Part shown: positions 29,693-58,060 of the stretch, in pieces
Numbering within the stretch: position 1 is the stretch's first letter
Layout of the letters: each line of letters opens with the position of its first letter
Assembly: GCA_965215505.1 (NCBI GenBank)
Contig: OZ244065.1
Location: 3,904,001 to 3,968,000, forward strand
Length of the DNA stretch: 64,000 nt
Direction of reading: 5' to 3'
Source: Capsulimonadaceae bacterium
GTDB taxonomy: Bacteria > Armatimonadota > Armatimonadia > Armatimonadales > Capsulimonadaceae
Program-made: the position numbers and the translations under genes
Notes under the pieces: generated by a model
What the model saw: the letters and a program-made list of their open reading frames with translations, nothing else
Database searches by the model: none
What the model was told of the DNA's origin: nothing

Positions 29693-30272
29693 CGACCCGC
29701 AACGAACCCGGCCATGCCCGCAACGAACCCGGCCATGAATGGCCGGTCTATTCCCGGCTTCGCCGGTGGGCCGCCCCTTCGGGGCTACGGACGATGCCAC
29801 CGAATGATGTGATGGTGTAGGGGCGCCGCTTGCCGCGCCCTCCTGCCTTCCCCGCCCTCCTGCTTTCCCCGCCCTTCTTCTCCCAAAGCGCGGCAGGACA
29901 AGAGGGCGCGGCAAGCGGCGCCCCTACGCCCGGAGGATGCCGCCCCGGATGCCGCCCCGGATGCCGCCCCGGATGCCGCCCCGGATGCCGCCCCGGATGC
30001 CGCCCCGGATGCCGCCCCGGATGCCGCCCCGGATGCCGCCCCGGATGCCGCCCCGGATGCCGCCCCGGATGCCGTGCCCCTACACCGCCCCTGTAGGGGT
30101 CGGGTTCCCCGACCCTCGTTCCCCTCCTTTCCTTTCGGCTTTGTCCCTCCGAAGCCCCGATCCGAAGCCCCGAAGCGGGCGGCCCACCGGCGAAGCCGGG
30201 GATAGACCGACGGTTTAACGCCGGGACAATGGGCCGGGACGCAGCCGCATAGACCAACGGTTCAACGCCGGG
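29693..30272. repeat. Composite REP/palindrome cluster
   Basis: ccggccatgaatggccggtcta (29729); REP doublet 29817-29927; gtaggggtcgggttccccgaccct (30093); inverted pair cccggcttcgccggtgggccgcc / ggcggcccaccggcgaagccggg; two atagacc.acggtt.aacgccggg copies. Confidence 0.75.
29935..30074. repeat. VNTR: 12-bp unit ggatgccgcccc x11 plus a partial unit
   Basis: Perfect tandem units with no spacers. Confidence 0.95.
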
Positions 30273-30492
30273 CTGACTTTTTCACGAAATGCTTGACAAA
30301 CGATGGGGGCTTCCGCTACACTGTAGCATAGCAGAAATACCAAAGTGTCTGCCGCGCGTTGCAAAGGAGAACCATCCGATGACACGCACCGCGACAGGCA
30401 CGAACATTCGCCCCTGCCCCATTTCCGGCCCCGTCCGCCTTGCCGGTCTTTACTAAGTAAAGACCGGCGCGCTCCGATCCTGGCTGACCCTG

Positions 30493-32487: not shown

Positions 32488-32509
32488 CTTCTACCGGAGG
32501 AGGCCTTGG

Positions 32510-33331
32510 ATGCGAACACCGGCCATCAGTCTTATTCTTCTGGCGTTCGTGGCTGGCTGTGGATTACATCATGCCTCCTCCCAGCAGTTTGTTCCGCGTC
32601 CTGTCTCACAGCCGGAAATAGAGGCCCGTCAGAACTTTGCTTGGTCAAGACTTCCGATCAACGGCGATGATACGCCTTACGCTCAGATCGCGTTACACAT
32701 TGACCAGGCGATCCGGTCTGGGGTTTCCCCGCAATCACTCCGCAGTCAATACGGCCTCCAGGCACAGCGACAGTCCGATAGCCCGCAAGCACAGTTTGCC
32801 TGGGCTTATGCTTCCTGGAAAGCTCTGCCTGCGGATTTTACCCTATCCGATAAAGCGGACATACTGGAAGGTGTTCCAGAAGCATTAGCCCATGCCACGT
32901 TTCCACGCGCATACCACTTCGCCCGCATCCGCTTCCTAGTAGAAGGCTCTGACTCGCGGATGTGGCCGCTCGGGGAGACGTTGTTGGCACATGATCCCAA
33001 TGACAAGGAGGTCAAGACAAATCTGATTAACTGCTACGGTGCTTTTTTGCTAGCTTCCAAACCGAGCGATGCCACTGTGCCGAAGATCAAGCAAAAGGCG
33101 CTTTCTTACGCGCAGGATATGCTGCGGTCTGACCCTCAAAAACCGAGATACCACGCCACTATTGGATGGGTTTACTTGATGTCATGGGCGGAAAAAAGCA
33201 ACCAGAACGACGGCCGGAACGCCATCAAGTACTTCCAAGAGTATCTGCGCCTCGCGCCTGCTAATGACAGTTGGCGCAGGCAGGCAGAGTCCTTCATCAA
33301 AATGATCCAGAGCCAGCAACAGTCAAAGTAA
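32510..33331 (+). CDS. Putative lipoprotein with TPR-like helical repeats
   Basis: GGAGG RBS; lipobox VAGC; C-terminal AIKYFQEYLRLAP. Confidence 0.75.
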   Translation: MRTPAISLILLAFVAGCGLHHASSQQFVPRPVSQPEIEARQNFAWSRLPINGDDTPYAQIALHIDQAIRSGVSPQSLRSQYGLQAQRQSDSPQAQFAWAYASWKALPADFTLSDKADILEGVPEALAHATFPRAYHFARIRFLVEGSDSRMWPLGETLLAHDPNDKEVKTNLINCYGAFLLASKPSDATVPKIKQKALSYAQDMLRSDPQKPRYHATIGWVYLMSWAEKSNQNDGRNAIKYFQEYLRLAPANDSWRRQAESFIKMIQSQQQSK

Positions 33332-33625
33332 GATTGGGTGCGAAACTGTACTTGTTACCAAACATGACGCCTCGTTTCAAGTTCAGCCAGCCGTTTGAGG
33401 AGCGACTAGCAAGGTACTGACCATCTTCAATTAAGGACAGGCACAAGCTGTCTGCCTTCTCCATTGCGCCTTCTCTGGGATGGCACTGCCGCCCTTGACC
33501 GAGTTTTCTGCTCCCTTCTGCCTATCTTAGTAGGACTGAGACTTTCCGCCGCCTTTGACGTGGGAGAAGCAGGCCCCCTATGTTTGGGGCCTGCGCTTCG
33601 TTAAAGAGGGAAACACTACAGCACG

Positions 33626-34609
33626 ATGAAGAATACGTCGGACCTCAAAATGCCTTCGGCGTCTTCACCTACCTTGGGCCTGGATCGTGAGGGGGCCAAC
33701 GATGATGAGGGCCGATCCGGTGAGAATCAACAAAAAAAGGCACTCGCGTTTGCGGCGGCAGTGGCTATGATCGTCACCTATTCCGCCGCAACGCAGCGGG
33801 CTTGGCTGACGGCGCTCGTGCCCATGGCGGCGGAAGCCGCCATCGACCCACTCGCTGCCGCGCGATACCAGGAATATGCGCCCAGTGACCCCGTAGGGGA
33901 GAAAACCATCGCTGAGAACGCATCCTCCTGGCGGCATGAGACATGGGGCGGCGACGACGGCCCTTATCAGAAAGCGCGCCGGGAGATTGATGCTGCTGTC
34001 GCTGCCGGCACATCCCCCATGCATCTTGCGCGCCAGTATGAAGCGCAAGCGGACCAGAACCCGAAGGCCCCTTTAGATCAATTCCGCTGGGGCTATGCCC
34101 TGTGGAGAACATTCACGCCGACTTCCACATCGGCTGAAAAGGGGACGAATAAACCAGGCGCTTTCTATTCACTGGCAAAGATCGAATCACCTAACACCTA
34201 CAACTACGCCCGCTTAAGGTATCTGCTCTCGTATCAGAGCGGCGACCTGACGGCGCTAGGTGAAAGGTTGATACAGCGGGATAACCAGGATGTGCAGGTC
34301 AAAGCCCATCTCGCTCTGGATTACACAACGCCTGGCTCGAAGCCGTACACCTTGGAGGTCAAACGCAGGGGCATCCAACTCTCGGAGGAGTTGATCCAGT
34401 CTGACCCAAAGTACCCTCAATATCACGCCATTCTCGCAGAAGAATACATAACGAGTTACTATGTAAATGGTCATCATCGCCAGGACGCTGCGGCTGCGGT
34501 CGTGGCGCTGAAGGAATACCTGACCCTGGCAAAGCCCAACGAGTTCTTCTATGAAGCGGCGAAAACCCGTGTCGCCACTTTGGAGCAGGAGTTAAATGGG
34601 GGTAAATAG
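33626..34609 (+). CDS. TPR-like protein, paralogue of 32510..33331
   Basis: Shared GDD.PY...ID.A...G.SP..L..QY..QA...P..QF.W.YA.W and EYL.LA motifs; start uncertain. Confidence 0.75.
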   Translation: MKNTSDLKMPSASSPTLGLDREGANDDEGRSGENQQKKALAFAAAVAMIVTYSAATQRAWLTALVPMAAEAAIDPLAAARYQEYAPSDPVGEKTIAENASSWRHETWGGDDGPYQKARREIDAAVAAGTSPMHLARQYEAQADQNPKAPLDQFRWGYALWRTFTPTSTSAEKGTNKPGAFYSLAKIESPNTYNYARLRYLLSYQSGDLTALGERLIQRDNQDVQVKAHLALDYTTPGSKPYTLEVKRRGIQLSEELIQSDPKYPQYHAILAEEYITSYYVNGHHRQDAAAAVVALKEYLTLAKPNEFFYEAAKTRVATLEQELNGGK

Positions 34610-44622: not shown

Positions 44623-47600
44623 TCACAGCGGGCAGATCAGGCTGTACGCGCACGAACGGCATTCGTCGCCCGACTCGGGCCGGGCCGGGAACAGGCCGAG
44701 CTGGATGCCGCGTGCGGCCTTCTCGTATTTCGCCAGCCTGTCGCCCTCCCACTTCAACTCCTGCTTCTTCTCCGGCGGCGCGATGGCCTTGATGGTGCCG
44801 TCGGACAGGTAACGAAGCTCGACGCGGACCGGCGTGTCCGGGTGGGTCTGCGTGGCCGCGCGGCGGTACAGGGCGAGTTTCTTGTCCGTGTGGTCGCTGT
44901 CGCCGGGCCGGCCGGTGAGGTGGCGGGCGACGATCAGGGTTCCGTCCTCCGTGTCCCGGCGGATCACATCGGGCCGCACATGGACGTGGCAGTTTGACAG
45001 CGTCGCGCGCAGCGACTTGATCCCCGCCCGCTGCTCCGTTTCGGCCCCCAATGCCCCGCCCGCGCGCAGCATCCCCAGCGCGCTTTCTTTGTACTTCGCC
45101 TCGTGCAGATGCCCGACCGGGCCGTGTTCCGCCCAGATGGCCTCCAAACGCGCCTCGGCCTCCGCCGCCGTGGGCGGCTGCCCCGCTTCGCGCGCGTCTT
45201 CCAGCCAGTGCAGGGTCCGGCGGACGCAGGCGTGGAACTGCGGGTAGCCGTCCCCGCCGAACGCGCCGGGCAGCTTCAAGCTCTGTCCGTAGTGGTACTG
45301 GCGCGGGCAGCGCCCATACGTCTCCAGGGCCGACGACGAGTACTCCGGCAGGGCCTCGGGCGTCGGCGTTATTAGGTCGTCCGCCTCGGGCGCGGGCGCA
45401 CGCCCTGCCGGCCAGGCCGTCTCGGCGATGCCGCGCTCCTGCAAATGCGGCTGGATCAGGGCCAGCAGCGGGGAGGGCGCGACGGCCTTGTCGGCGGCGT
45501 TCCTCTCGGCCCGCGAAAGGACGATGTGGTCGCGGGCGCGGGACAGGGCGACGAAGAACAGGCAATGCTCCTCGTCCAGCTCCTCGCCCGCCGCGTCCGC
45601 CAGGCCCGGCGGGGTGGGGATGCCGTCGCTCCGGCCCCGCGTGGGGAACTGACCCGCGCCCAGGTTCGGCAGGAAGACGACCGGGTATTCCAGCCCCTTG
45701 GCGGCGTGGGCCGTCAGCAGGCGGACGGCGTCCAGCGCCTCGGCCTCGGGCGGCAGGCTCCCGCGCGGAGCGCCGCCGGACGCCTGAAGCCGGCGCAGGT
45801 GGGCCAGGAACGCGCGGACGCTGTTCGGCGACCCGTGCGGCGTCCGGGGCGCGACCAGGCGCTTGCCCGCGTCGGCGGCCATCCCCAGCAGTTGATGGAT
45901 CGCCAGGGTGCGGGCCAGCCGCGCCAGCTCGCGAGGCTCACCTGCCGTCAGGTGCCGCAGATAGTCGGACAGCCCGAACAAATAGTGCCGCAACAGGGCG
46001 GCCGGGTCGTTCTCCATCGTCTCCAGTTCGGCCAGGTGCGCCGCCAGTTTCGCCAAACCAGGGTGCAGGCCAGGCTCGCTTAACGCTTCCAGCAGCGGCG
46101 TCTCGGCCCGGCCCATCTGCGTCAGGAAGGCCAGCGCGTCCGCCTGCGGGACGGCGTATTCGGGGAACGCGGCCACGCGGATCAGCGCGGAGCCGTCGGG
46201 GTCGGCGAACAGGGCCAGCAGGCAGAGCAGGTCCTTGATCTCGGGCCGTTCCAGCAGCGCGCCCAGATAAAGGACGGGGATGTCGCGCGCCGCCAGCAGG
46301 CCCGCCAGCGCCTCCGCCTGGGCGTGTGACCGGCACAGGATGGCCTGGTGGCGGTGGTCACAGCCGGCGGCCTTCAGGTCTTTGACGGCCTGCGCGATGC
46401 CCTCCGCCTGCCCGACATCGTCGGGCGAGACGGCCAATGTGACGGCGGGGTGGGGCGGGTTTTCGTGCGTGCCACGGTGCGCGCGCCAGACGGAAACATC
46501 GGGAAGGACAGGAGGGTAGGACGGGAGAAGAGGGCGGGGGGACCCCGCCCCTACGCCATTCCCTGTAGGGGCGGGGTCCCCCCGCCCTTCTTTGTCCTGC
46601 CCGTCCTTGCCTGGTTCCATCATCCCGCTCGCCGCGCCGAACAGGTCCACGATGGGTGCCCGCGAGCGGTAGTTGACGCCAAGTTCCAGCCGCCGCCCCG
46701 TCGGGTAGTCCCGCTCGAAGGCGGCGACGTTGGCGGGGGAGGCCCCCTGGAACTGGTAGATGCTCTGCCGGTGGTCGCCGACCGCCCACAGGCCTTGGGC
46801 TTGTTCCCCGGCCAGCAGGCGGACCAGGCGGGCGCAGGCGCGGTTGACGTCCTGGTATTCGTCTGCCAGGACGTGTGGGTACTCGCCTTGCAGGTCCGCC
46901 AGGACGGCGGGGTGGCTTTCCAAAAGCTCCACCGTCCGCGAGATCAGGCCGCCGAAGTCCAGGAAGCCGCTCTCAGCCAGCAGGCGCTCGTAGACCGCGT
47001 AGCAGTGCGCGACCTCGGCCGCCTTCGCGGCCTGCGCTTGCCTCTTGGCGGCGTCTTCCAGCTTGCCTTTCAGGCCCTTGTCGCTGCCCGCCGCCTGCAC
47101 CTGCGCTTCCAGGGCGGCCATCGCGGCGTCGGCGGGGGCCTGCATCGCCGCGCAGAGTTCGGCGTAACGCGCCGGCGGGCAAAGCTCGTCCTTGGCCCGC
47201 CCGATCTGCCCTAAAATCCCGCCCAGGTGGATGGCCGGGTTATAGAGGTTGTCCAGCGCGTCCAGCTTCAGTTCGGCGAGATTGTTTTCCAGCAGCGTCA
47301 CGCCGTCCAGAGTGTTCAGCAGCTTGATGTCGCCGGTCAGCCCGATCTTTCCCCCGTAGCGGCGCAGCACTTCCAGGCCGAACGAGTGGAACGTCCCCAC
47401 CCACGGCCCGGCCTTCTCGGACCCGACGCCCGCCGCGACCAGGCGCTCCTTCATCTCCCCGGCGGCCTTGCGGGAGAAGGTGAGGGCCAATATCTGCGGG
47501 GCCGGAACACCCAACCGCTGAGTCAGGAATTGGCAGCGGCCCACCAGCGTCTTGGTCTTGCCCGTCCCCGGCCCGGCCCCGAGCAGCAGCGGGCCGCAGG

Positions 47601-48228
47601 AGATTTGCGCCGCCGCCTGCTGCGATTCGTCAAGCGTCACGTCGGCGGATGCGGGCGTCGGCGCTGCCTCTGTCACCCCGTCGCAGTGCGGCAGCAGGAG
47701 GGCGTCGGCGAGCTGCATCTGGACCATGCCGGTCGGCAGACCTAGTGCCTCGGCGATGGCCCCCGCCGACTGCCCTTCCTCGCTGAACAGGCTGCGGGCC
47801 AATGGGCTAGGCAACAGCATTTCGGCGGCGTAGACGTTCGCCTCGTTCTCGCGCCTCTGTTTGGGCGCGTAGCCCTCCACCTTGCTCATCGCGCCCGCCG
47901 TGGCCTCGGCGGTTTGGGACAGGTCGAGGTCGCCGGCCGTGCAGGAGATGGCCTCGGCGTGGAGCCAGAAGTGGGCGAACTCGTGTACGGCATCGAACGC
48001 CTGCATGGCGAAGGGCCGGGAGCCGTCCTGGTAGATGGCCGACATCTCGTGGTCCAGCACCGCCGAGGCCCCCGCCAGCAGGGCATCATCCGGCGTGAGG
48101 AAATGCCGCACGAGGCCCGTGGCATGGAGACACGCCTCCACCACCGACTGCGCCGGCAGGGCTTCCTCTACCAGCAGTCCTAATTCCAGCCGCCGCGCCC
48201 GCGCCTGCCGCCGTATTTCACTACTCAT
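44623..48228 (-). CDS. ImmA/IrrE-like metallopeptidase - UvrD/PcrA helicase - Fe-S PD-(D/E)xK-like fusion
   Basis: HEFAH and ENEANVYAAEMLLP; AGPGTGKT, LTFSRKAA, DEYQD, VGDHRQSIY, NYRS, TAHAAKGLE, VALSRA; C-terminal CP...CxxCxxxxxC. Confidence 0.9.
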   Translation of the reverse strand: MSSEIRRQARARRLELGLLVEEALPAQSVVEACLHATGLVRHFLTPDDALLAGASAVLDHEMSAIYQDGSRPFAMQAFDAVHEFAHFWLHAEAISCTAGDLDLSQTAEATAGAMSKVEGYAPKQRRENEANVYAAEMLLPSPLARSLFSEEGQSAGAIAEALGLPTGMVQMQLADALLLPHCDGVTEAAPTPASADVTLDESQQAAAQISCGPLLLGAGPGTGKTKTLVGRCQFLTQRLGVPAPQILALTFSRKAAGEMKERLVAAGVGSEKAGPWVGTFHSFGLEVLRRYGGKIGLTGDIKLLNTLDGVTLLENNLAELKLDALDNLYNPAIHLGGILGQIGRAKDELCPPARYAELCAAMQAPADAAMAALEAQVQAAGSDKGLKGKLEDAAKRQAQAAKAAEVAHCYAVYERLLAESGFLDFGGLISRTVELLESHPAVLADLQGEYPHVLADEYQDVNRACARLVRLLAGEQAQGLWAVGDHRQSIYQFQGASPANVAAFERDYPTGRRLELGVNYRSRAPIVDLFGAASGMMEPGKDGQDKEGRGDPAPTGNGVGAGSPRPLLPSYPPVLPDVSVWRAHRGTHENPPHPAVTLAVSPDDVGQAEGIAQAVKDLKAAGCDHRHQAILCRSHAQAEALAGLLAARDIPVLYLGALLERPEIKDLLCLLALFADPDGSALIRVAAFPEYAVPQADALAFLTQMGRAETPLLEALSEPGLHPGLAKLAAHLAELETMENDPAALLRHYLFGLSDYLRHLTAGEPRELARLARTLAIHQLLGMAADAGKRLVAPRTPHGSPNSVRAFLAHLRRLQASGGAPRGSLPPEAEALDAVRLLTAHAAKGLEYPVVFLPNLGAGQFPTRGRSDGIPTPPGLADAAGEELDEEHCLFFVALSRARDHIVLSRAERNAADKAVAPSPLLALIQPHLQERGIAETAWPAGRAPAPEADDLITPTPEALPEYSSSALETYGRCPRQYHYGQSLKLPGAFGGDGYPQFHACVRRTLHWLEDAREAGQPPTAAEAEARLEAIWAEHGPVGHLHEAKYKESALGMLRAGGALGAETEQRAGIKSLRATLSNCHVHVRPDVIRRDTEDGTLIVARHLTGRPGDSDHTDKKLALYRRAATQTHPDTPVRVELRYLSDGTIKAIAPPEKKQELKWEGDRLAKYEKAARGIQLGLFPARPESGDECRSCAYSLICPL
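46531..46588. repeat. REP doublet embedded in-frame in the helicase gene
   Basis: agggcggggggaccccgcccctac (identical to intergenic 49797-49820) plus inverted gtaggggcggggtccccccgccct. Confidence 0.85.
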
Positions 48229-48877
48229 CTCCGAGTGTCCCCTCGCTTTCTATTTCCACATGCCAATAGTCCCGGTCGGCCTGTGGCAGACCGCCGAGGA
48301 CATCCTCAAACTTTTGTCGTGGTCCCGACTCGCGCAGGACCGGTGCCTGCCTGGACTTATATTGCGCGCCCGATGCCAGCCGGGGGGGCAGCCGCAGGTA
48401 CGCCTCTACTTCGTCCGCCGAGCGGCCCAACGCCTGCGCGGCCCGCTTGGCCAGCGAGCGCGGGAGCGAGGCGGCGTCCAGCAGCCTCTGGTTCAGGCGG
48501 GAGAGGGCGAGCGTGTCCAGGCGCAGTGCTTGGGCGAACTCGCGGGCGGTCAGGCCGCGCGCCTTGGCCTCGTCCACCAGGCTGACCAGCGGCTTGGGCG
48601 GGGCGAAATGGCGGTCCAGGGCAGCCCGGCCCAGGGCAACGGTTTCGGGGTCCTCGGGGCCGCCTTCCAGCGGGTCGGTCAGCGACAGGCCCGCCGCGAA
48701 CCCGGCGAGGCTGACCTCCACCAGCGCGTCGGCGTGGGCCGGGTACTGCGCCGCCCACTCGCGCAGCAGAGTCCGGTCGCCGGGGGCAGCTTGGGACGCC
48801 TGCGCGTAGGCGAACAGGACGTCGTCCGCTTCCACTTCGGTCAGGCTGGGGTCATCGGGGACTGCTTTTTCGTTCAT
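48221..48877 (-). CDS. Hypothetical protein with a possible Xre-like HTH (candidate repressor/anti-sigma)
   Basis: Overlaps both neighbours; GLTAREFAQALRLDTLALSRL helix pattern. Confidence 0.75.
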   Translation of the reverse strand: MNEKAVPDDPSLTEVEADDVLFAYAQASQAAPGDRTLLREWAAQYPAHADALVEVSLAGFAAGLSLTDPLEGGPEDPETVALGRAALDRHFAPPKPLVSLVDEAKARGLTAREFAQALRLDTLALSRLNQRLLDAASLPRSLAKRAAQALGRSADEVEAYLRLPPRLASGAQYKSRQAPVLRESGPRQKFEDVLGGLPQADRDYWHVEIESEGTLGDE

Positions 48878-49599
48878 CGCGTGTCTTCATTCCAGAATGC
48901 CTGGGCGGTCTTCGCCCAGTTGCGGAGGGTGCGGTCGGTGACGCCGAGCCGCGTGCCGATCTCTCGATCCGTGAAGCCGTGCAGCCGCAGGTGGACCATC
49001 TCGGCGACGCGCGGGTGCCTCTGCGCCAGCCGCCGACAGAAGGCGGCGTCTTCTATCGCCGTGAAGGCGTTCACAGGGTCGGCGATCTGTGCCAGGCCGT
49101 CATGCTCCTCGCCGTCCGCGTCCATGCGCGCCAGCGAAACCGCGTCTTCGCGCCGCCGCCTCGCCGCCCTCCATGTGTTGATGAGGCACCGGTTGAAGCA
49201 GCCGGTGAAGTTGCACTCCCATAGCTCCTTGCCTGGCCCCAGGTCCAATGCAGCCTGCACGACCGCAATGATCGTCTCCTGCTTGGCGTCGGTCTTCTCT
49301 TCGGGTGTCAGGCCGGACCACGCCGCGACTCGCTTGGCGATGCTGTGGCTGACGCGCCGGACCAGGGCGTCCATGACGCGCCGGGAGGCGTCCGCGTCCC
49401 CCGCCTTTTGGTAAGCGCGGGCCATCGCGACCAGCGTTTCCCAGGTCAAGCCGTCCCCGCCCGCCCGCATCAGGGCCGCGTCACGGGACAGCCGCGCCAC
49501 CTCGGACAGCTCCCGGATGACGCCCTCGGGGCGCGTCCGCACTTGCAGCGGGCGCAGGAACTCGGCCCTGCCTTCGGCGTCCTCTGTGTCTCTACTCAT
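48874..49599 (-). CDS. ECF/sigma70-family sigma factor-like protein
   Basis: Region-2-like DAKQET...; region-4 HTH LHGFTDREIGTRLGVTDRTLRNW. Confidence 0.75.
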   Translation of the reverse strand: MSRDTEDAEGRAEFLRPLQVRTRPEGVIRELSEVARLSRDAALMRAGGDGLTWETLVAMARAYQKAGDADASRRVMDALVRRVSHSIAKRVAAWSGLTPEEKTDAKQETIIAVVQAALDLGPGKELWECNFTGCFNRCLINTWRAARRRREDAVSLARMDADGEEHDGLAQIADPVNAFTAIEDAAFCRRLAQRHPRVAEMVHLRLHGFTDREIGTRLGVTDRTLRNWAKTAQAFWNEDTR

Positions 49600-49711
49600 G
49601 GTGATTTCTTGAAAGCGGAAAACGATTTCCGCTTCTCGCGGAAAGGCGCGAGTGGGGAAGTGTCAGCACAGTATAACACAGGCGGGCGGGTTGAGGCAAA
49701 TGAGTAAGGAC

Positions 49712-49897
49712 GCCACGGGTTGAAACCCGAGGCTTGGAAGTGCCCACCGTCGAAGCGACGTTAAGAGCGACAAGGATCGGAGGGCGAGAAACAAAGAGGG
49801 CGGGGGGACCCCGCCCCTACCCGGTCATGCTCTTAGGTTCATGTCTTGCGTCCCCTGGACGCTGGGCTTTTCGGAGCCTCGGGTTTCAACCCGTGGC
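49712..49897. repeat. Inverted palindromic pair enclosing a REP
   Basis: gccacgggttgaaacccgaggct / agcctcgggtttcaacccgtggc, with a REP at 49797-49820 inside. Confidence 0.75.
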
Positions 49898-49937
49898 TCC
49901 CCGCCGCTGAACGCACCCGAAGAACACGGAGACTACC

Positions 49938-51410
49938 ATGAAAGCCCAGTACATCGAAGACCTGACGCCCGGCGATGCCGTGGACGGCGAGTTCGTCCTC
50001 TCCCGGGCCGAGCGCGGCAAGAGGAAGAACGGCGAAGCCTTCCTGCGGGGCCAGCTCCAGGACCGCACCGGCACGGTGGCCGCCGTCGCCTGGACGCTCA
50101 CCGAGGGACAGATCGGGGCCGCGCTGGCGTCGCGCTATGTCCGCGTCCGGGGCACCGTCGGCCGGTACAAGGACGGGCGGCAGGTCACGATCACGTCGGC
50201 CCCGGAAGACATGGGCGAGCCGGAAGACCTCTCGGACTTCACGCGGGCCGCCGCCCTGCCCCGCGCCGAGCTGTGCCGCCGCCTCGACTCGCACCTGGAT
50301 ACGATCCAGAACCCATTTCTAAACGCCCTGCTGCGGGCCTTCTTCCATGACCCCAGGTTCCGCCGCCGATTCGACGAGGCCCCTGCCGCCATGGGCCTGC
50401 ACCACGCCTGCATGCACGGGCTGTTGCAGCACACGCTGGAGGTGACCGACCTCGCCGCCGCGATCGCCGACGTGCAGGGCCGCTGGGGCTACCCCGCCGT
50501 CTCGCGCGACGTGGTGGTCGGGGGCGCGCTGCTGCACGACATCGGCAAGGTCTATGAGCTTACCTGGGACGGCCCCGAGTATGGCTACACCCGCCGGGGG
50601 CAGCTCTACCAGCACATCATCCTCGGCTTCCAGATCGTCTCCAAGAAGATCCTCGGCATCCCCGGCTTCCCTCCCGACCTCACCGACGCCCTGTTGCACG
50701 GCATCCTGTCCCACCACGGCAAAGAAGAACACGGCTCGCCCGTTTCGCCCCAGATGCCGGAGGCGCAGATCGTCCACATGGCCGACGCCCTGGACGTCCA
50801 GCTTTTCTACATGATGGAGGCCCGCGCGGGCGCGGAGGGCGACACCGCCTGGCACCCGGCTTTGGAGGGCCGCGTCAAGACCGGAGGCCGGCGCGTTTAT
50901 TCGGGGTCGCTCGACTTCGCGCCGGACTTCTCGCGGCCCGAGCCGGCCCGCCTCCTCCCCGTCTTCCGCCTGGCCTCACGCGGCTCCGCGCCGGCCTTCG
51001 AAACCCGCCGCCTGCCTCTGCGCGGGCGGACGGCGGCCGGCCCGCCCGTTCTGGCCGATGACCGTGTGGAGGAGGAGCTTGATGTGGCGGCTGAGGGCCT
51101 GCCCACTGGCCCGGACCTGTTCCTGCTGCGAGTGGACGGCGAGAGCATGACCGGCGACGGCATCGCGGACGGCGACCTGATCGTCGTCCGCCCGCAGCAG
51201 CACCACGCGCCTGACGCCGTCCTCGTCTGCCTGCTGGACGACGACACGGTCACGATCAAGCGCGTGGAGCGGACGGCGTCCGGGGGCCTGCGCCTGCTGT
51301 CCTCTAACCCCGCGTTCGCCGCCATCCCCATCCCCATCGCCGACCCCGAACGCTTCCGGGTGCGCGGGCGCGTCCTGGGCGTCGCGCGCGGTGTCCCGGC
51401 GGTCCCTTGA
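49938..51410 (+). CDS. YhaM-like OB-fold/HD 3'-5' nuclease fused to a LexA-type S24 peptidase domain
   Basis: LQDRTG OB fold; HH...GLLQHT, LLHDIGK, SHHG, ADALD; then GRTAAGPP, LRVDGESM, VTIKR, VRGRV. Confidence 0.88.
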   Translation: MKAQYIEDLTPGDAVDGEFVLSRAERGKRKNGEAFLRGQLQDRTGTVAAVAWTLTEGQIGAALASRYVRVRGTVGRYKDGRQVTITSAPEDMGEPEDLSDFTRAAALPRAELCRRLDSHLDTIQNPFLNALLRAFFHDPRFRRRFDEAPAAMGLHHACMHGLLQHTLEVTDLAAAIADVQGRWGYPAVSRDVVVGGALLHDIGKVYELTWDGPEYGYTRRGQLYQHIILGFQIVSKKILGIPGFPPDLTDALLHGILSHHGKEEHGSPVSPQMPEAQIVHMADALDVQLFYMMEARAGAEGDTAWHPALEGRVKTGGRRVYSGSLDFAPDFSRPEPARLLPVFRLASRGSAPAFETRRLPLRGRTAAGPPVLADDRVEEELDVAAEGLPTGPDLFLLRVDGESMTGDGIADGDLIVVRPQQHHAPDAVLVCLLDDDTVTIKRVERTASGGLRLLSSNPAFAAIPIPIADPERFRVRGRVLGVARGVPAVP

Positions 51411-51435
51411 CAGGGCAATGGTGCAGTGCTATAAT
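51407..51435 (+). promoter_or_regulatory. Consensus sigma70 promoter
   Basis: TTGACA-N17-TATAAT overlapping the upstream stop codon. Confidence 0.75.
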
Positions 51436-51473
51436 CCGGTGTCTTGACAGGAGGCTTGTTAGGAGGCACCGTT

Positions 51474-51746
51474 TTGGACCCCGATCTTCCCCAGAATGTT
51501 TCGCAGGACCCCGCCGTCTCCGGCCTGGTCCGCCGCGCCGCCCTGCGCGCCTTCCTCGCCGGCCTCGCGGTCGCCGCCCTGCTCGCGACCGCCGTCGCGC
51601 TGGGGGCCGAGACGTTCGCACACGGGTTCCGGCAGGGGGCCGTGTGGGGCTTCGGCATCGGCCTGGGCGTCGTCTTCGGCGGGTCGGTCCTGAACGCCCT
51701 CGTCGGCCTGCTGGACCAGGCCAAGACCGACATCACGGGGGGCTAG
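51474..51746 (+). CDS. Small two-TM membrane protein
   Basis: AGGAGG RBS and TTG start; two hydrophobic helices. Confidence 0.65.
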   Translation: MDPDLPQNVSQDPAVSGLVRRAALRAFLAGLAVAALLATAVALGAETFAHGFRQGAVWGFGIGLGVVFGGSVLNALVGLLDQAKTDITGG

Positions 51747-51758
51747 AGGGCCTTCACC

Positions 51759-53078
51759 ATGACCCCCCTGCGCCGGGCGGCCCACCGCTGGGGGCCGCTG
51801 CTCGTCTACATCGCCGCCTGCGGCCTGCTCCTCAGCCTGCTCGGGCGGCAGGGTGCCGCCCTGCTGAGGGCGCTCCTCGCCGGCCTGCCGTTCGGCCTCG
51901 GCCTGTTCTGCGGCTTCGCCCTGGCGGTCGCGGCGGGGACGCTCTGGGTCTTCCTCGCCGGCCCGATACAAGAGTTGATCCAGGAGCGGTTCCTGGACCC
52001 GCCCCAGCCCGCTGCCGTGCTGACGCCGCCGCCGGACGGGCCGCAGGGGGTCCTCGTCTCCGACCTGCACATAGACACCTGGGGGCTGGCCGATGACGGC
52101 ACCCCGAACGCCCGGCGGGCGCGCTTCCTCGGTTTGCTGGCCGCCGTCAAGGCCGACCCGCACGTCAACAGCTTCTACCTCAACGGCGATCTCATGGACA
52201 TCCCGCTCCACCCGGACGCCAATGCACCCGAGCCGGAGATGCTGCGCCTGAGCGGGATGCTCGCCGAGGAGCGCGGCGTCCTGCTGGCGCGCTACGACTC
52301 CATCCTCGGGGCACTGCTAAACCTGACCCGGCCCGACCCCGCCTCGCCCGCCGAGATGGCCGCCCCTGTGCGGCGCGCGGTCTTCCAGACCGGAAACCAC
52401 GACGTGGGCGTTAGCGGCCTGCGCTACGTCCGCCCCGAACTGCCCCCGTTCCTGCCGCCCGTCCAGGCCGTCTGGAACCCCTCCCTGCTGATCCAGACCG
52501 ACGCCGACGGCAACGATCTTCCCCGCTGGACCTACATCGAACACGGCCACCGCTGGGACCCGCTGCTGTGGCTGTACATGCGCTACGCCCTGCTCGACAT
52601 CCTCCGCGCCGGGCACCGCCGACGGGAGGCGCAATTACTGTCAGGGATGCAGCGGGCGGGCAAGGCCGGCATGGGGGCGCAGACATCGGGCGGCGAGGTC
52701 CTGCCGCCCGCGCCCGCGCCGGGCACCTCGCAGAACCATTTCCCCGACGACCAGCCCGGCCTGCTGTCCACGCTCGTCCGCCTGCGCTACCGTCAGGCCG
52801 CCCGCCGTCTGTTCCGCGAGTTCCGCAGCCGGCAGGCCGACCCCCAGGCGGCGGTGCGCGTCCGCACCCTCCTGATGGGCCACACGCACCACCCGGACCG
52901 CTACGTCTTCCCCGGCGGCCTGCTTTACATCAACTCCGGCGACTGGTCCGGCTATACCGCCCACTGCGCCTACTGCGTCCTCGACCCCGACGGGTCCGTG
53001 CGCGGCCCCTTCCAGTGGGAGGGCGCGGGCAAGGCCGAGTTCGGCCTCCGCCCGGACTCCGACGGCGACAAGTCGTGA
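51759..53078 (+). CDS. Membrane-anchored calcineurin-like metallophosphoesterase
   Basis: N-terminal TM helices; SDLH, GDLMD, GNHD, EHGH, GHTH, NSGDW. Confidence 0.85.
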   Translation: MTPLRRAAHRWGPLLVYIAACGLLLSLLGRQGAALLRALLAGLPFGLGLFCGFALAVAAGTLWVFLAGPIQELIQERFLDPPQPAAVLTPPPDGPQGVLVSDLHIDTWGLADDGTPNARRARFLGLLAAVKADPHVNSFYLNGDLMDIPLHPDANAPEPEMLRLSGMLAEERGVLLARYDSILGALLNLTRPDPASPAEMAAPVRRAVFQTGNHDVGVSGLRYVRPELPPFLPPVQAVWNPSLLIQTDADGNDLPRWTYIEHGHRWDPLLWLYMRYALLDILRAGHRRREAQLLSGMQRAGKAGMGAQTSGGEVLPPAPAPGTSQNHFPDDQPGLLSTLVRLRYRQAARRLFREFRSRQADPQAAVRVRTLLMGHTHHPDRYVFPGGLLYINSGDWSGYTAHCAYCVLDPDGSVRGPFQWEGAGKAEFGLRPDSDGDKS

Positions 53079-53361
53079 ACCGGGCCTCCTAGCGGACGCC
53101 GGCAAAAGTGCCTGAAAGCGCACGGACCTACTGAAAGCCGGCATTCTTGCCGATGATAAGTAAGGCGACCGGCCTGGCGTTTTTATGAAAAGTGCTGTAT
53201 ACTAAACCCGGCAGACATCCTACCGGCCGCTGATGATGTGCGGGACGGGCCTCTGGCCTGGCCGCGCCCCCGCCCTGATTACCCACGGCTTACATCTTCA
53301 TCCTGCACCTTCACGTCCCATTTTCACGACACGTCTCACACTCGGAAAGGCCTTTTTCTTT

Positions 53362-56300
53362 ATGCTCGTTAGTTCCACCCTCGTCCGCCGCCTCGCGCGC
53401 CGGGTGAGTCCCCCGCTGCTGGGGGGCCTCGTGGCCGCCGCCGCGCTGCTCGGGGCCGCCCCCGCGCGGGCCGCCACGCTGCTCGTCACCGACACCAGCG
53501 ATGTCGCCACCGACGCAGGCTCACTCCGCCATGCGGTCAATGCCGCCCTCCCCGGCGACACCATCACCTTCGCGCCCAGCGTCACCGGCGTCATCACGCT
53601 CTCCCCGGCCAACGGCTCCCTGACGCTCAACCCGCCTGCGGGCGGCACCGCGATCACCATCAGCGGGCCGGGCGCGAACGCGCTCGCCGTTGACGGCGGC
53701 GCGGCCTCCACGGTCTTCGCCGTCTCCGGCGGGGCGGTCGCCATTTCCGGGCTGACCCTCCAGAACGGCATGTCCCCCTACTACGCCCTCGGCGGCGGTG
53801 CCGTTGACGTGGAAGGCGGCGGCGCGCTGACGCTGACGGCCTGCACCCTCTCCGGCAACACCGCCCCGAGCAACGCGAGCGGCGGCGGCCTGTATGTGGA
53901 CTACGGCTGCTCGGCGACCCTCAAGGCCTGCGCGATCGTCGGCAACACCGCCTCCGACGGCGGCGGCGTCTACGTCAACGGGACCGTCTCGCTGCTGAAC
54001 TGCACGGTCGCCGGCAACGCCGCCTCCACGGCGGGCGGCGGCGTCTATGTGGACTTCAACGCCGGCGGCTGCGCCATCGCCTCGTCCACCCTCTCCGGCA
54101 ACACTTCCGCAGGCACGGGCGGCGGGCTGGAGGTCAGCTACGGCGCGGCCGCAAGCCTCGTCGGCAGCCTCATCGCCGGCAACACGGCCGGTAACAACGG
54201 CGGCGCGGTCACCCCCGGCCCCGACATCACCGTGGACAGCGTCAGCCCGACCTTCCACGGCGTCGTCACCTCGGGCGGCGGCAACCTGATCGGCATTGAC
54301 GACGGCGGCACCAACGGCGACGCCGCCTATGCCGGCAATGACTCCGTGGGCACCGCGGCGCACCCGATCAACCCCCGGCTCGACCCCGAAGGCCTCAAGA
54401 TGAACGGCGGCCCGACCCCGACCGTCGCCCTGCTGCCCGGCAGCCCCGCCCTGGACCTGGTCCCGGCGAAGGCCGCGCCCGTCACCGACCAGCGCGGCGC
54501 ACTGCGGAACGTCTCCGGCGACGGCAAGAGCGACTGCGGCGCGTTTGAGGCTCAGGCCAACGACAGCATCACCGACCTGACCGTGAACGCCAACCCGGCC
54601 CTCCAGGGGCAGAATGTGACTTTCACCGCCCGCGTCTACACCTTCACCGGGACGCCGACCGGGAGCGTCAAGTTCGCCACAGGCGGGCAGACGGCCACCG
54701 CCCCCGTCAGCGCCTCGGGCACGGCGGCCCTCACGACCAACGCCCTGAGCCTCGGCTACCACGCCGTCACGGCCGCCTACTCGGGCGATACCCGCTTCCG
54801 GGCGAGCCAGTCCGCGCCGCTGACCGAGCACATCCTGTACGCATCTAAGACCCTTAAAGTCACCGACAAGTCGGACAACCCGAGCGACCCCGGCTCGATC
54901 CGCTCGATCGTCAACAACGCCCAGCCGGGCACCTCGGTCACGTTCCCTAACCTCTCGGGCACGATCACGCTGACGAACGGCCCCCTGGTCGGCGGCGACC
55001 TTTCCCTCCTCGGGCCGGGCGCGGGGAGCCTGACCCTTGACGGCAACCGGAACGGCTCCGTCCTCGTCATCACCGGCGGGACGGTCAGCATCTCGGGCCT
55101 GACCTTCCAGAACGGCCTGACGACCGGGGTGGGGGGCGGCATTGACCAGGAGGCGGGTACGCTGACGCTGACAGACTGCACCCTGATCGGCAACACCGCC
55201 AACTATGGCGGCGGCCTCTTCGCAGGCGGCACGGCGACCCTCAGCGGCTGCTCCATCACCGGCAACACCGGCAAGGGCGGCACCAGCATAGACGGCAGCA
55301 GCACGAGTGGCGGCGGCGGCGGCGTCTACGCCGCGAACCCCATCACCCTGACCGGCTGCACCGTGGCGGGCAACACGACCTCCGCCGACACCGGCTCCTA
55401 CGGCGGCGGGATCGAGGGCGCGGACGCCGTGACGCTTAACGCCTGTGCCGTCACCAAGAACACCGCCTCCGGCATCGGCGGCGGCGTCTACGCGGCCGGC
55501 ACCCTGGCGGTCAACGCCTGCTCCGTGCAGGGCAACACGTCCTCGGTGGACGGCGGCGGGCTGTACGGCTTCGGGGCCGTCACCCTCGCCTACAGCTTGG
55601 TGCAGGGCAACACCGCCGCGCGCGACGCGGGCGGCCTCTACGCCAACGGCGCGCTCACGGCTCCCTACAGCGCCCTGCTGGGCAACACCTCCAGCAGCGT
55701 CGGCGGCGGCGTCTACACCGGCGACGCGGCGATCCTGACGGGCTGCATCGTCTCGGGCAACACGTCCCTCTTCTCCGGCGGCGGCCTCTTCGGCGCCGGC
55801 GCTTCGTCCGGCGGCTTCTTCGGTGCCCCCCCCGTCGCCGGGCCCCTGGTGAGCCTGACGGGCTGCACCGTGTCCGGCAACACGTCCACGGCCAGCTACG
55901 GCGGCGGCCTCTACCTCTCCGGCCCCCTGACCCTGACCGGGTCCACCCTCTCCGGCAACACGGCCGGCGAGGGCGGCGGTGGCCTCTACTGCTCCGACCA
56001 GACCCTCGTCGCCGACTGCACCCTCGCGAACAACGCGGCCCAGGGCGACAGCGGCGGCGGCCTCTACGACGACGGGTTCCTGACGCTGACCGCCTGCACC
56101 CTCACCGGCAACTCGGACCCTAAGTTCAGCGGCGGCGGCCTGTATGTGGATTACCAGCCCTACCAGCAGGTCACGGCCACCCTCCAGGCCGACCTGATCG
56201 CCAGGAACACGGCGGGCACCGACCCGGACGTCGCGGTCAGCACGTCGTTCTCCTCGACCGACCCGGACGCGCCGGTCGTGACCTCGAACGGCTACAACCT

Positions 56301-56589
56301 GATCGGAGTGGGCGGCGTCACCTACGCCCCCGCCCCAAACAAGAACGACCAGGTGGGGACGGCGTCGCGCCCGATCAATCCCCAGCTCGACCCGAACGGC
56401 CTCCAGTTCAACGGCGGCCTGACCCAGACCATCGCCCTGATGGCCGGCAGCCCCGCACTGGACAAGGTCCCAGCGAAGGCGGCCCAGGCCGCCGACCAGC
56501 GCGGCGCTCCCCGCCCCGGCAACAACGACGGCAAGGCTGACATCGGCGCCTACGAGGCCCAGCTCAAGAACTCCGGGAAGGGGCACTAG
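53362..56589 (+). CDS. Large secreted beta-helix repeat surface protein (choice-of-anchor Q-like domains with Ig-like linker)
   Basis: Signal peptide; GSLR.A; many GNTA..GGG repeats; two NGG.T.T.AL..GSPALD...DQRG...D.GA.E modules; central TAAYSGD Ig-like domain. Confidence 0.88.
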   Translation: MLVSSTLVRRLARRVSPPLLGGLVAAAALLGAAPARAATLLVTDTSDVATDAGSLRHAVNAALPGDTITFAPSVTGVITLSPANGSLTLNPPAGGTAITISGPGANALAVDGGAASTVFAVSGGAVAISGLTLQNGMSPYYALGGGAVDVEGGGALTLTACTLSGNTAPSNASGGGLYVDYGCSATLKACAIVGNTASDGGGVYVNGTVSLLNCTVAGNAASTAGGGVYVDFNAGGCAIASSTLSGNTSAGTGGGLEVSYGAAASLVGSLIAGNTAGNNGGAVTPGPDITVDSVSPTFHGVVTSGGGNLIGIDDGGTNGDAAYAGNDSVGTAAHPINPRLDPEGLKMNGGPTPTVALLPGSPALDLVPAKAAPVTDQRGALRNVSGDGKSDCGAFEAQANDSITDLTVNANPALQGQNVTFTARVYTFTGTPTGSVKFATGGQTATAPVSASGTAALTTNALSLGYHAVTAAYSGDTRFRASQSAPLTEHILYASKTLKVTDKSDNPSDPGSIRSIVNNAQPGTSVTFPNLSGTITLTNGPLVGGDLSLLGPGAGSLTLDGNRNGSVLVITGGTVSISGLTFQNGLTTGVGGGIDQEAGTLTLTDCTLIGNTANYGGGLFAGGTATLSGCSITGNTGKGGTSIDGSSTSGGGGGVYAANPITLTGCTVAGNTTSADTGSYGGGIEGADAVTLNACAVTKNTASGIGGGVYAAGTLAVNACSVQGNTSSVDGGGLYGFGAVTLAYSLVQGNTAARDAGGLYANGALTAPYSALLGNTSSSVGGGVYTGDAAILTGCIVSGNTSLFSGGGLFGAGASSGGFFGAPPVAGPLVSLTGCTVSGNTSTASYGGGLYLSGPLTLTGSTLSGNTAGEGGGGLYCSDQTLVADCTLANNAAQGDSGGGLYDDGFLTLTACTLTGNSDPKFSGGGLYVDYQPYQQVTATLQADLIARNTAGTDPDVAVSTSFSSTDPDAPVVTSNGYNLIGVGGVTYAPAPNKNDQVGTASRPINPQLDPNGLQFNGGLTQTIALMAGSPALDKVPAKAAQAADQRGAPRPGNNDGKADIGAYEAQLKNSGKGH

Positions 56590-56678
56590 CCCCGCCCCCG
56601 CCGGGGACTACCCGCTGGGGATCATCCGAAGACTGTCTGAAGATCATCCGGCGGGGCCACTCTGAGCATGACCGCGAC

Positions 56679-56717
56679 GACGGCCCGGACCTACACTGTA
56701 GGTCCGGGCCGTCTTTT
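56679..56717 (+). terminator. Intrinsic terminator
   Basis: gacggcccggacctaca-c-tgtaggtccgggccgtc followed by tttt. Confidence 0.7.
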
Positions 56718-56820
56718 CGCGCCGGGGAATGACGCCGGCCGGCGCAGTGGCCGGCAGGAAACGGGGACGCGGGCGGCGAATGAGTGTTGTGAGAGGGACC
56801 ACACTGCGGGAGGTGTCACC

Positions 56821-57630
56821 ATGAACCCAAAAAGAGGCGGCCACTCGGGCCGGCGCGGCGTCGGCCCCGCGTCCGGCTTCACCCTGACGGAGCTGCTCAT
56901 CGTCATCGCCATCATCGCGGTCCTCGCCGCGTTCCTGTACCCCGTCTTCCAGCATGTGCGCGACAACGCGCATCGGGCGACCTGCCAGAGCAACATGAGG
57001 CAGCTCGGCATCGCCCTGGTCCAGTATGTCACCGACAGTGACGAAGTCATGCCCCGGTCCTGGTACGGGCCGCCCATCTCCAACGGCCCCTCCGACCCCA
57101 CGGCGGGCAAGTACAAGTGGATGGACATCGCCTACCCCTATGTCCACAGCGAACAGGTCTTCACCTGCCCCGACGACCCCGCCGCCGGGGCGCACCCCTA
57201 CATCTATTACCGGAACCTCCCGGCCCCCAGCGACCACAACTACGGCACCTACCGCAGCAACTTCGCCTACTACCGCACCAGTTCCTACACGCCGCCCTTC
57301 TCCGACTTCAACCGGCCCGTGCCCCAGTCCGCCGTCCGCGTTCCGGCGGACACCGCCTGGATTCTGGAGGGGGACGCCGACCAGACCATCTACGACACCG
57401 CCTGGCGGGACGTGTCGCAGACGCCCGTCATCACGGCGGACAACCCGCGCCGCCTGCAAAACAACGCCGACCCCGCCCGCCAGCGGGCCGTCGCCCGCCA
57501 CGGCGGCCTGACCGACGTGATCTGGTGCGACGGCCACGCCAAGGCGGTCTCTTTGGAGTACCTGGCCGCCACCCACACCATGCGGAACGGCGACAAGATC
57601 CTGTACCGCTTCACCATACAGGACGACTGA
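56821..57630 (+). CDS. Prepilin-type N-terminal cleavage/methylation protein with H-X9-DG motif (DUF1559-like)
   Basis: GGAGG RBS; GFTLTELLIVIAII; CQSNMRQLG; RHGGLTDVIWCDGHAK. Confidence 0.9.
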   Translation: MNPKRGGHSGRRGVGPASGFTLTELLIVIAIIAVLAAFLYPVFQHVRDNAHRATCQSNMRQLGIALVQYVTDSDEVMPRSWYGPPISNGPSDPTAGKYKWMDIAYPYVHSEQVFTCPDDPAAGAHPYIYYRNLPAPSDHNYGTYRSNFAYYRTSSYTPPFSDFNRPVPQSAVRVPADTAWILEGDADQTIYDTAWRDVSQTPVITADNPRRLQNNADPARQRAVARHGGLTDVIWCDGHAKAVSLEYLAATHTMRNGDKILYRFTIQDD

Positions 57631-57631
57631 T

Positions 57632-57949
57632 TCACCATACAGGACGCCTGAATGCCCGCCGGGGGCGCTTCTTCAGCCGGTGCAGGATCTTCGGGTTCCG
57701 GTAGGTCGTCACCAAAGCGCCCCCTTGGGAGACGACGGCGACGGTGCCGTGGACGCGGGCGGCGTACTCCGCGCCCACCCAGAGCGGGATGTCGCGGCGG
57801 CGCAGATAGTACAGCACCGCGCCGGTGACGTGCAGGCGGGTCCCGTAGCGCAGGGTGAGGTCGAGCTGGTCGTCGGTGATGCCGCGCCGCCTCTGTCGCT
57901 CGGCCCCGTGGCCGGTCGTGGCGAGGCAGGCAAATGAGGTGATTGTCAT
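57632..57949 (-). CDS. Small basic protein, DUF4258-like
   Basis: AGGAG RBS; TGHGAERQRRRGI...LRYG...LVTTY pattern. Confidence 0.65.
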   Translation of the reverse strand: MTITSFACLATTGHGAERQRRRGITDDQLDLTLRYGTRLHVTGAVLYYLRRRDIPLWVGAEYAARVHGTVAVVSQGGALVTTYRNPKILHRLKKRPRRAFRRPVW

Positions 57950-58060
57950 CGGTTTCTCCTGTTCCGTCGGGGCGTGCTGCTGTCCTACTCGCGGGGAACG
58001 CGCGGAACCGGAAAGCGCGCAGGAAAACCGCCCCCCCGTGAACAACTATCACGAACGCCC

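Follow-up and report, generated by a model that had tools for sequence, protein, structure and literature searches.

A YhaM-type nuclease fused to a LexA-like self-cleaving domain in Armatimonadota: a candidate RecA-responsive enzyme

Introduction

Can a nuclease, rather than a repressor, be switched directly by RecA filaments? This question is raised by a gene of a Capsulimonadaceae bacterium (Armatimonadota; GenBank assembly GCA_965215505.1, contig OZ244065.1), which lies at 49938..51410 on the + strand of a 64,000-nt stretch of DNA (contig positions 3,904,001 to 3,968,000, forward strand). The whole stretch is hereafter called the window, and coordinates refer to it unless another locus is named. 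The predicted protein of 490 aa consists of an oligonucleotide/oligosaccharide-binding (OB) fold and an HD nuclease domain of the YhaM type, a linker, and an S24 self-cleaving domain. To our knowledge, the RecA co-protease substrates known so far are transcription factors (LexA and the repressors of phages and of integrative and conjugative elements) and one polymerase subunit (UmuD). Here, we examined the integrity, conservation, and genomic context of the fusion gene and weighed the proposal that self-cleavage stimulated by RecA filaments controls a 3′ single-stranded DNA (ssDNA) exonuclease after translation. Judged from sequence comparisons, we consider the chances of this proposal to be even.

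Domain architecture and integrity of the fusion gene

The N-terminal part of the protein resembles YhaM. The OB fold (49977..50198, +; residues ~14–87) was delimited by a match to tRNA_anti-codon (PF01336) at residues 28–87, which at 23.5 bits fell under the Pfam cut-off of 27, by five beta strands forming a five-strand barrel at residues 14–85 of an AlphaFold2 model, and by Foldseek matches of this region to the OB folds of RPA and SSB and to the anticodon-binding domain of aspartyl-tRNA synthetase. The HD phosphohydrolase/nuclease domain (50412..50831, +; residues ~159–298) matched PF01966 at residues 163–286 with 54.3 bits (cut-off 22). Its metal ligands, H165, H200-D201, H259-H260, and D283, were assigned by alignment to Bacillus subtilis YhaM (PDB 9h3f), which begins at residue 12 of the fusion; the ligands of B. 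subtilis YhaM itself are H163, H193, D194, H250, H251, and D274 (PMC12107432). When solved structures were searched by sequence, the nuclease part matched B. subtilis YhaM (9h3f, E = 8.5e-36) and Staphylococcus aureus Cbf1 (9o7t, E = 8.3e-35). The fusion thus shares with YhaM/Cbf1, 3′-5′ exonucleases of Firmicutes, the order of OB then HD, all metal ligands, and ~31–33% identity over some 280 residues, but it belongs to another phylum and carries ~190 extra C-terminal residues that include the S24 domain. The NCBIfam model for YhaM (NF010007) scored 147.6 bits over residues 4–293 against an equivalog cut-off of 460, indicating a relative of YhaM rather than an equivalog.

A linker (50832..51002, +; residues 299–355), recognized by alignment columns of variable length and by the confidence of the model, which was lowest at residues 328–336, connects the nuclease to the LexA-type S24 domain (51003..51392, +; residues 356–485). 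Peptidase_S24 (PF00717) matched residues 361–479 with 76.2 bits, above the gathering score of 23.3. The NCBIfam lexA model (TIGR00498) gave 77.5 bits against a cut-off of 110.95, and matched only at model positions 79–201, which correspond to the C-terminal domain, while the UmuD model NF007621 reached 52.1 bits, under its cut-off of 110. All domain E-values were far beyond chance. The predicted scissile bond Ala367-Gly368 (51036..51041, +; GRTAAGPP) aligned with A84-G85 of Escherichia coli LexA, the predicted nucleophile Ser403 (51144..51146, +; DGESMTG) was in register with LexA S119, and the predicted general base Lys441 (51258..51260, +; TVTIKRVE) was in register with LexA K156. No helix-turn-helix (HTH) family matched the protein in Pfam and NCBIfam scans. 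A preliminary description, made from the sequence alone, had claimed a YhaM-like OB and HD nuclease fused to an S24 domain with an intact GRTAAG/GESM/TIKR set and without a DNA-binding HTH; the profile and structure matches agree with it on each of these points.

The S24 domain shares with the C-terminal catalytic and dimerization domain of LexA the LPL-GR-AAG cleavage loop, the G-x-SM and xxKR motifs, the RecA-contact pocket, and an acidic patch, whereas the winged-helix DNA-binding domain of LexA is replaced by the nuclease. Among solved structures, many LexA entries were matched by sequence, and the domain was closer to LexA (E. coli LexA, E ~5e-15) than to UmuD (UmuD′, E ~1e-4). For the proposed switch, UmuD is the nearest functional precedent, being an S24 module that has no DNA-binding domain and alters the activity of a DNA-processing enzyme, DNA polymerase V, when it is cleaved. 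Unlike the S24 domain of the fusion, which is covalently attached behind the enzyme, UmuD is a small subunit of its own, from which cleavage removes 24 residues. The AlphaFold2 model, built from 30 homologues (mean pLDDT, 85.5; pTM, 0.59), was consistent with both assignments: template modelling (TM) scores, normalized to the target, were 0.82 for YhaM and ~0.8 for LexA C-terminal domains, including RecA-filament-bound LexA (8trg, 8gms, and 8s7g).

Two cases in the databases might suggest that the fusion arose through faulty assembly or gene calling, or that the gene is a pseudogene in decay: a 98% identical protein record (P0008) has a frameshift in the linker, and an orthologue of 77–78% identity is split over two records (P0009 and P0033). 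Both look like assembly errors, and the split record looks error-prone because it holds further frameshifts. In the window, by contrast, the open reading frame (ORF) is intact, with GGAG 7–10 nt ahead of its ATG; it is also in frame in contigs of four runs from four studies, one contig spanning 49868–51500, and the full-length form is known from at least 38 clusters at 50% identity. The likelihood that the fusion is spurious is therefore, in our judgment, minute. The sole length difference among the contigs of the runs was an in-frame one of 6 nt at 51322, where six extra nucleotides in the window add Ile-Pro near the C-terminus of the S24 domain relative to the contigs of three other runs and to the orthologues.

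Family, conservation, and distribution

The fusion is not unique to this assembly. About 35 clusters at 90% identity carry both PF00717 and PF01966. At 50% identity, ~40 clusters have this architecture: when 1.84 billion representatives at that level were searched with a profile, the best 150 matches included 38 full-length fusions, 3 probable ones that matched in two stretches, and 2 fragments. Every family member with an organism name belongs to Armatimonadota; one of them comes from Capsulimonas corticalis, a cultured relative. These proteins are already in public databases under generic names: the clusters at 90% identity are called “hypothetical protein”, “metal dependent phosphohydrolase”, “HD domain-containing protein”, “transcriptional repressor LexA”, or “3′-5′ exoribonuclease”. 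No description of a YhaM–S24 fusion was found in open-access papers or on bioRxiv. A search of genome contigs with back-translated HD patterns returned 53 stand-alone YhaM relatives and no fusions, the patterns being too general.

The residues expected to be needed for self-cleavage are kept across the family. Among 44 family sequences, the Ala-Gly site was found in 42, the Ser in all, and the Lys in 43 (the exception is Arg). The HD ligands were present in all 43 sequences that cover them, except H260, which was present in 40 of the 43. This conserved set reaches sequences as low as ~27–35% identical, and the S24 machinery looks maintained by selection.

A quick maximum-likelihood tree was built from the nuclease part (84 rows; root not known; support from the Shimodaira–Hasegawa-like approximate likelihood ratio test, SH-aLRT, only). 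In it, 32 stand-alone YhaMs formed one clade with 99% SH-aLRT support, opposite all 42 fusions, among which 10 shorter forms were interspersed. This topology fits a single old fusion that was retained, with occasional later losses or gene calls that came out truncated. Within the order, 37 of 71 genomes had a YhaM-like match. The 39 matches comprised 28 in frames of at least 450 aa, which is the fusion length, 9 in frames of 314–381 aa, and 2 fragments. In the genus of the window, 8 of the 23 other genomes had a match, all of fusion length. The only orthologue within the genus is that of genome G336 (80% identity), and the other seven matches, 31–36% identical, belong to the other main branch. 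No second YhaM-like gene or stand-alone yhaM was found in the source genome, which is a single contig of 6.18 Mb.

Correspondence with RecA and LexA

E. coli LexA docks within the RecA filament's groove, where a pocket formed by F111, L113, and V153 receives F203 of RecA and an acidic patch of D150, D151, and E152 makes a further contact (PMC9926225). In a HMMER alignment of the sequences, the pocket residues correspond to F395, L397, and V438 of the fusion, and D150–E152 to D434–D436. The aromatic residue of the pocket was F or Y in all 44 family sequences, and the Leu was found in 39. Responsiveness of the S24 domain to RecA is thus plausible and gains support from the kept docking residues.

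The source genome also encodes RecA and LexA. It contains two full-length recA paralogues (L110 and L111), both with MFGNPETT in the L2 loop, a motif that we take to hold the equivalent of E. coli F203. Three further S24 genes (L001, L002, and L003) are lexA-like, with N-termini of ~70–100 residues that, judged by eye, read like the LexA DNA-binding domain; one of them lies 2.5 kb downstream of recA1. The Gram-positive LexA box has the consensus CGAAC-N4-GTTCG. By eye, sequences resembling the box were seen upstream of recA2 (CGAACGTCTGTTCG), recA1, and one lexA. No site with at most one mismatch to this Gram-positive consensus, which was checked in the source genome by eye at those three genes, was found at 49600–49937, upstream of the fusion gene. 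The fusion differs here from Bacillus yhaM, whose transcription is controlled by LexA. Because no LexA-box-like site was found upstream of the fusion gene, any coupling to the SOS response would have to be post-translational.

Proposed mechanism and alternatives

Cleavage itself, its stimulation by RecA, and its effect on activity are the parts that we infer. The fusion would be a YhaM-type, Mn/Mg-dependent 3′-to-5′ single-strand nuclease joined to an S24 domain in place of a DNA-binding head. DNA damage or another source of ssDNA would give rise to RecA–ssDNA filaments. These would accommodate the S24 domain in their groove and keep the cleavage loop positioned over Ser403 and Lys441, and the protein would then cut itself between Ala367 and Gly368. 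The cut would free a 367-residue OB and HD nuclease from a 123-residue, probably dimeric, S24 core. In this manner the nuclease itself would be the RecA substrate, whereas Bacillus yhaM is coupled to the SOS response through LexA-repressed transcription. B. subtilis YhaM is a hexameric 3′ ssDNA exonuclease under LexA regulation; its hexamer assembles on ssDNA and degrades 3′ ssDNA overhangs (PMC12107432). Cleavage might license the nuclease in one of two ways: by detaching it from an S24 dimer that gets in the way of the YhaM hexamer ring, or by setting it free at the filament.

We lean slightly towards cleavage that licenses, rather than destroys, the nuclease. A prediction of the complex between residues 1–330 and 356–490, which concerns autoinhibitory docking, scored 0.00 and was uninformative either way. 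The reverse switch would have a full-length protein that is an active 3′ exonuclease and is inactivated or destroyed by cleavage on RecA filaments, shielding RecA-coated 3′ tails from trimming during recombination. The same cut is what inactivates LexA and lambda CI (PMC9926225), and the 3′ ssDNA overhangs that YhaM degrades are the substrate that RecA needs (PMC12107432). Moreover, the nuclease fragment would end in -TAA, and its two almost invariant Ala residues would give it the ...Ala-Ala-COOH terminus of the N-terminal LexA fragment. That LexA fragment is reportedly degraded by ClpXP. However, Ala-Ala is needed for the cleavage itself and so provides no independent evidence of a degron, and in Bacillus yhaM expression goes up on SOS induction, a logic that runs the other way (PMC12107432). 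We regard the reverse switch as rather unlikely.

Several observations weigh against a RecA-controlled exonuclease as proposed above. At least two acidic residues of the RecA-contact patch were found in only 20 of the 44 family sequences, and 8 had none. Two of the 44 fusions lack the Ala-Gly site and yet retain the S24 domain. With the query used, no YhaM-like gene was found in 34 of the 71 genomes of the order, and the function is thus dispensable. Furthermore, a damage-repair role of YhaM itself is unproven, because deletion of B. subtilis yhaM did not cause DNA-damage sensitivity (PMC12107432). Finally, IrvR is a LexA-like S24 protein whose cleavage is independent of RecA (PMC7101444).

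IrvR, the two members without Ala-Gly, and the acidic patch, which is weak in one subfamily, would also fit an S24 domain that does not sense RecA and serves instead for dimerization or as a scaffold, or that undergoes a maturation cleavage either constitutively or on another cue, such as pH or another protein. Nevertheless, the cleavage site and the catalytic dyad are kept in 42–44 of the 44 sequences, which is more than dimerization alone would require, and the hydrophobic pocket for the L2 loop of RecA is kept as well. We therefore consider an S24 domain without RecA sensing unlikely.

Neighbouring operon and genomic neighbourhoods

The fusion gene is divergent from an operon of three genes on the − strand that overlap at their ends, as the preliminary description had noted for what it called a peptidase-helicase operon. 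The first gene (48874..49599, −) encodes a 241-aa sigma factor resembling the extracytoplasmic function (ECF) type (PF07638, E = 2.2e-6; HTH_23), which scored 22.9 bits on TIGR02937, under the cut-off of 42.9. The second (48221..48877, −) encodes a 218-aa protein that is possibly XRE-like and presumably the target or partner of the peptidase that follows; it had no Pfam match at E ≤ 0.01, and its likeness to Xre-like-HTH was at E = 0.035. The third (44623..48228, −) encodes a 1201-aa protein that combines an ImmA/IrrE-type M78 peptidase, a UvrD helicase, and a PD-(D/E)XK nuclease. It carries HEFAH at residue 82 and GPGTGKT at residue 219, as well as a cluster of Cys residues at its C-terminus, and it is the sole M78 match in the genome. 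An M78 peptidase with HEFAH preceded by a small, possibly XRE-like protein recalls ImmR/ImmA, DdrO/IrrE (PprI), and CapH/CapP. In contrast to those pairs, the peptidase of the window is fused to UvrD and PD-(D/E)XK and preceded by an ECF-like sigma gene, and its 218-aa partner has no significant HTH match. This M78 peptidase-helicase-nuclease preceded by a sigma factor may be a sensor of DNA damage or foreign DNA in its own right.

The triad does not depend on the fusion. The 218-aa marker was detected in 77 of 401 sampled genomes of the phylum, all of them in four families, and mostly as a single copy. The gene order of the triad was the same in nine of ten loci of relatives (L113–L122), the contig of the tenth (L121) ending before the last gene, and within the genus the large triad protein is 60–63% identical; no fusion was found near the triad in any of the ten loci. 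In two of these relatives, the distance between the sigma gene and an ABC ATPase gene is ~2.2 kb; for the same gene in the window it is 8.4 kb, and the DNA in between varies from genome to genome. In this genus, therefore, the fusion is located in a variable segment beside a conserved module.

We then surveyed 34 fusion loci (the window, L060, L089–L108, and L123–L134), several of which are on short contigs. In six of these loci, an XRE-like and M78 module was no more than two genes away from the fusion, and three arrangements were seen. In the window and in G336, the fusion is divergent from the triad. In G386, G270, and G374, which represent two families, the fusion, a sigma-like gene, a relative of the 218-aa protein, and the M78-UvrD-nuclease gene are co-directional; the cluster of G270 is decayed, and in G374, where the stretch from the sigma-like gene to the helicase gene was not resolved, a relative of the 218-aa protein went undetected. 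In G381, the fusion is divergent from a plain pair of HTH_3 and a 211-aa M78 protein. Of this kind is locus L099, in which the M78 partner is a clear HTH_3 (E = 2.6e-10) and the pair, divergent from the fusion, has the layout of CapH/CapP beside its operon. The remaining 28 loci had no XRE and M78 neighbour in the available DNA. M78 genes number just 1–5 per genome (1, 1, 1, 5, and 4 in five genomes checked), which makes the adjacency more than chance. A rough, informal estimate puts the number of adjacencies expected by chance across these loci well under one, although related genomes are not independent.

The suggested partnership between the fusion and the adjacent operon thus stands in part: an association with XRE and M78 modules recurs beyond chance in 6 of the 34 loci, but a fixed link to this operon is less well supported, given the triad that keeps its order without the fusion in 9 of 10 loci, the variable insert, and the 28 loci lacking such a neighbour. 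XRE and M78 pairs derepress neighbouring genes on ssDNA (bioRxiv 10.1101/2022.04.27.489752; PMC10904395; PMC12828697). By analogy, transcription of the fusion may also respond to DNA damage in lineages, among them that of the window, with an adjacent module of this ImmA/IrrE/CapP-like kind, and a second, transcriptional layer of damage control is possible there.

A stricter form of this idea would make the fusion the output nuclease of a damage circuit that is restricted to Armatimonadota, occurs in some of their lineages, and needs two proteolytic keys. The M78-UvrD-nuclease would sense broken or single-stranded DNA and cleave the small XRE-like protein, whereby the ECF-like sigma factor would be freed or the shared promoter region derepressed and the fusion transcribed; RecA filaments would then trigger S24 self-cleavage and license the nuclease. 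With both keys required, a potentially dangerous 3′ exonuclease would act solely where the two signals coincide. We consider this circuit improbable.

The same neighbourhoods bear on whether the fusion could be an effector against phages or other mobile DNA. In that case, phage ssDNA and RecA filaments would release the nuclease, which would degrade invading or host DNA, and expression would be set by a CapH/CapP-like XRE and M78 pair. Such pairs regulate immune operons (bioRxiv 10.1101/2022.04.27.489752). The distribution is patchy (a fusion-length gene in 8 of the 23 other genomes of the genus, with one 80% orthologue), the copy of the window is in a variable insert, and some loci resemble defence islands. 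Locus L123 (G193:C76) holds the second fusion copy of its genome between genes for BREX BrxL and an SMODS/DncV-like cyclase, L099 has a BamHI-type restriction-modification system and an EVE protein beside the fusion, and transposases adjoin the fusion in L095 and L126. On the other hand, PADLOC-DB 2.0 detected no system and gave, for the fusion, just weak matches to Cas3/Cas10 HD domains (E = 1.7e-6 or weaker); its matches to the helicase gene were GajB-like UvrD proteins. Most neighbours are housekeeping genes, such as those for HrcA, RNase III, SpoVR, NAD synthase, and an aminoacyl-tRNA synthetase, one fusion subfamily is syntenic within the genus, and no full-length copy was found among 29 phage and 72 plasmid matching records. 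A role as a defence effector is accordingly quite unlikely in our estimate. Elsewhere in the survey, a UvrD-like helicase was found beside the fusion in L098, and a DUF6079 protein just upstream of the fusion, sigma, and M78-helicase cluster in L127 (G374:C254).

A small DUF4258-like protein (~95–135 aa; E = 0.0037, sub-threshold) recurred in 6 of the 34 loci, close to either the fusion or the M78-helicase gene: at 57632–58045 (−) in the window, 4307–4600 in L098, 3079–3399 in L103, 3569–3943 in L105, 3894–4268 in L108, and 5789–6100 in L132. Its gene is directly upstream of the fusion in two loci and 6 kb from it in the window. It was considered as an obligate partner and rejected, since it is near the fusion in just these six loci.

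Intergenic region and flanking genes

The divergent intergenic region between the sigma-like gene and the fusion measures 338 bp (49600..49937). Its first ~113 bp are common to the locus of the 80% orthologue in G336, and the remainder is genome-specific. The shared part contains an 18-bp palindrome, GCGGAAA-N4-TTTCCGC (49614..49631), which is a candidate operator. It has a promoter-like site of the − strand (49699..49670) on one side and the start of the sigma-like gene on the other, is single-copy in the genome, and has both arms kept in the G336 locus. No sigma-70-like promoter was found on the + strand of 49600–49937. A dispersed repeat resembling a miniature inverted-repeat transposable element (MITE) occupies 49712..49898; its 22-nt inverted ends are perfect, and a GC hairpin lies at its centre. 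Its end sequence has 17 + 16 genomic copies, it is absent from the orthologous intergenic region of G336, and in the four runs it showed very high depth and variable interiors. This copy is inserted in front of the fusion gene and separates it from the ancestral upstream region. Rfam gave only two sub-threshold, chance-level matches in the intergenic region (26.5 bits vs. 137 and 22.6 bits vs. 44).

A perfect consensus sigma-70 promoter, TTGACA-17-TATAAT with the TG of an extended −10 element (51407..51435, +), overlaps the stop codon of the fusion; all 12 of 12 positions match, against a mean of 0.2 sites in shuffled sequences. It precedes two genes (51444..53078, +), which encode two membrane proteins: a small one (100-aa ORF) and one of 439 aa that weakly resembles metallophosphoesterases (Metallophos, E = 0.022). 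The sequence of the small membrane protein is also found 3′ of the fusion in the 78% orthologue (tail of P0033), and neither gene was found beside more distant fusions. Because of this promoter, the two genes need not be co-transcribed with the fusion, and with their absence beside distant fusions we set co-transcription aside as an unnecessary assumption.

Two more genes lie further along the variable segment that separates the triad from the ABC ATPase gene: 53233–56589 (+) encodes a secreted-looking protein of 1118 aa with many Gly-rich “GGG(L/V)Y...GNTA” repeats, and 56668–57630 (+) encodes a protein with a prepilin-type N-terminal methylation motif. At 30001–34000 of the window, the G+C content is 0.55–0.61, compared with ~0.69 elsewhere, and this part is possibly a foreign island.

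Implications

Both parts of the fusion, YhaM and S24, are of kinds already known; the interest lies in an enzyme, rather than a repressor, as the likely RecA-responsive substrate. The authors of the Bacillus YhaM study propose an unidentified partner that regulates the hexamer (PMC12107432, Discussion). The question for Bacillus YhaM is which partner this would be, and in the fusion a candidate regulator is found within the same polypeptide. The recurrent XRE and M78 neighbourhood points to an unstudied damage module, in which a sigma factor, an XRE-like protein, and an M78-UvrD-nuclease form a triad. If the proposal is true, the S24 domain would be a natural example of a portable post-translational switch, which would be of interest to protein engineering. 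A RecA-responsive self-cleaving nuclease would give the SOS response a direct enzymatic output, one that would be faster than transcription and confined to the sites of RecA filaments.

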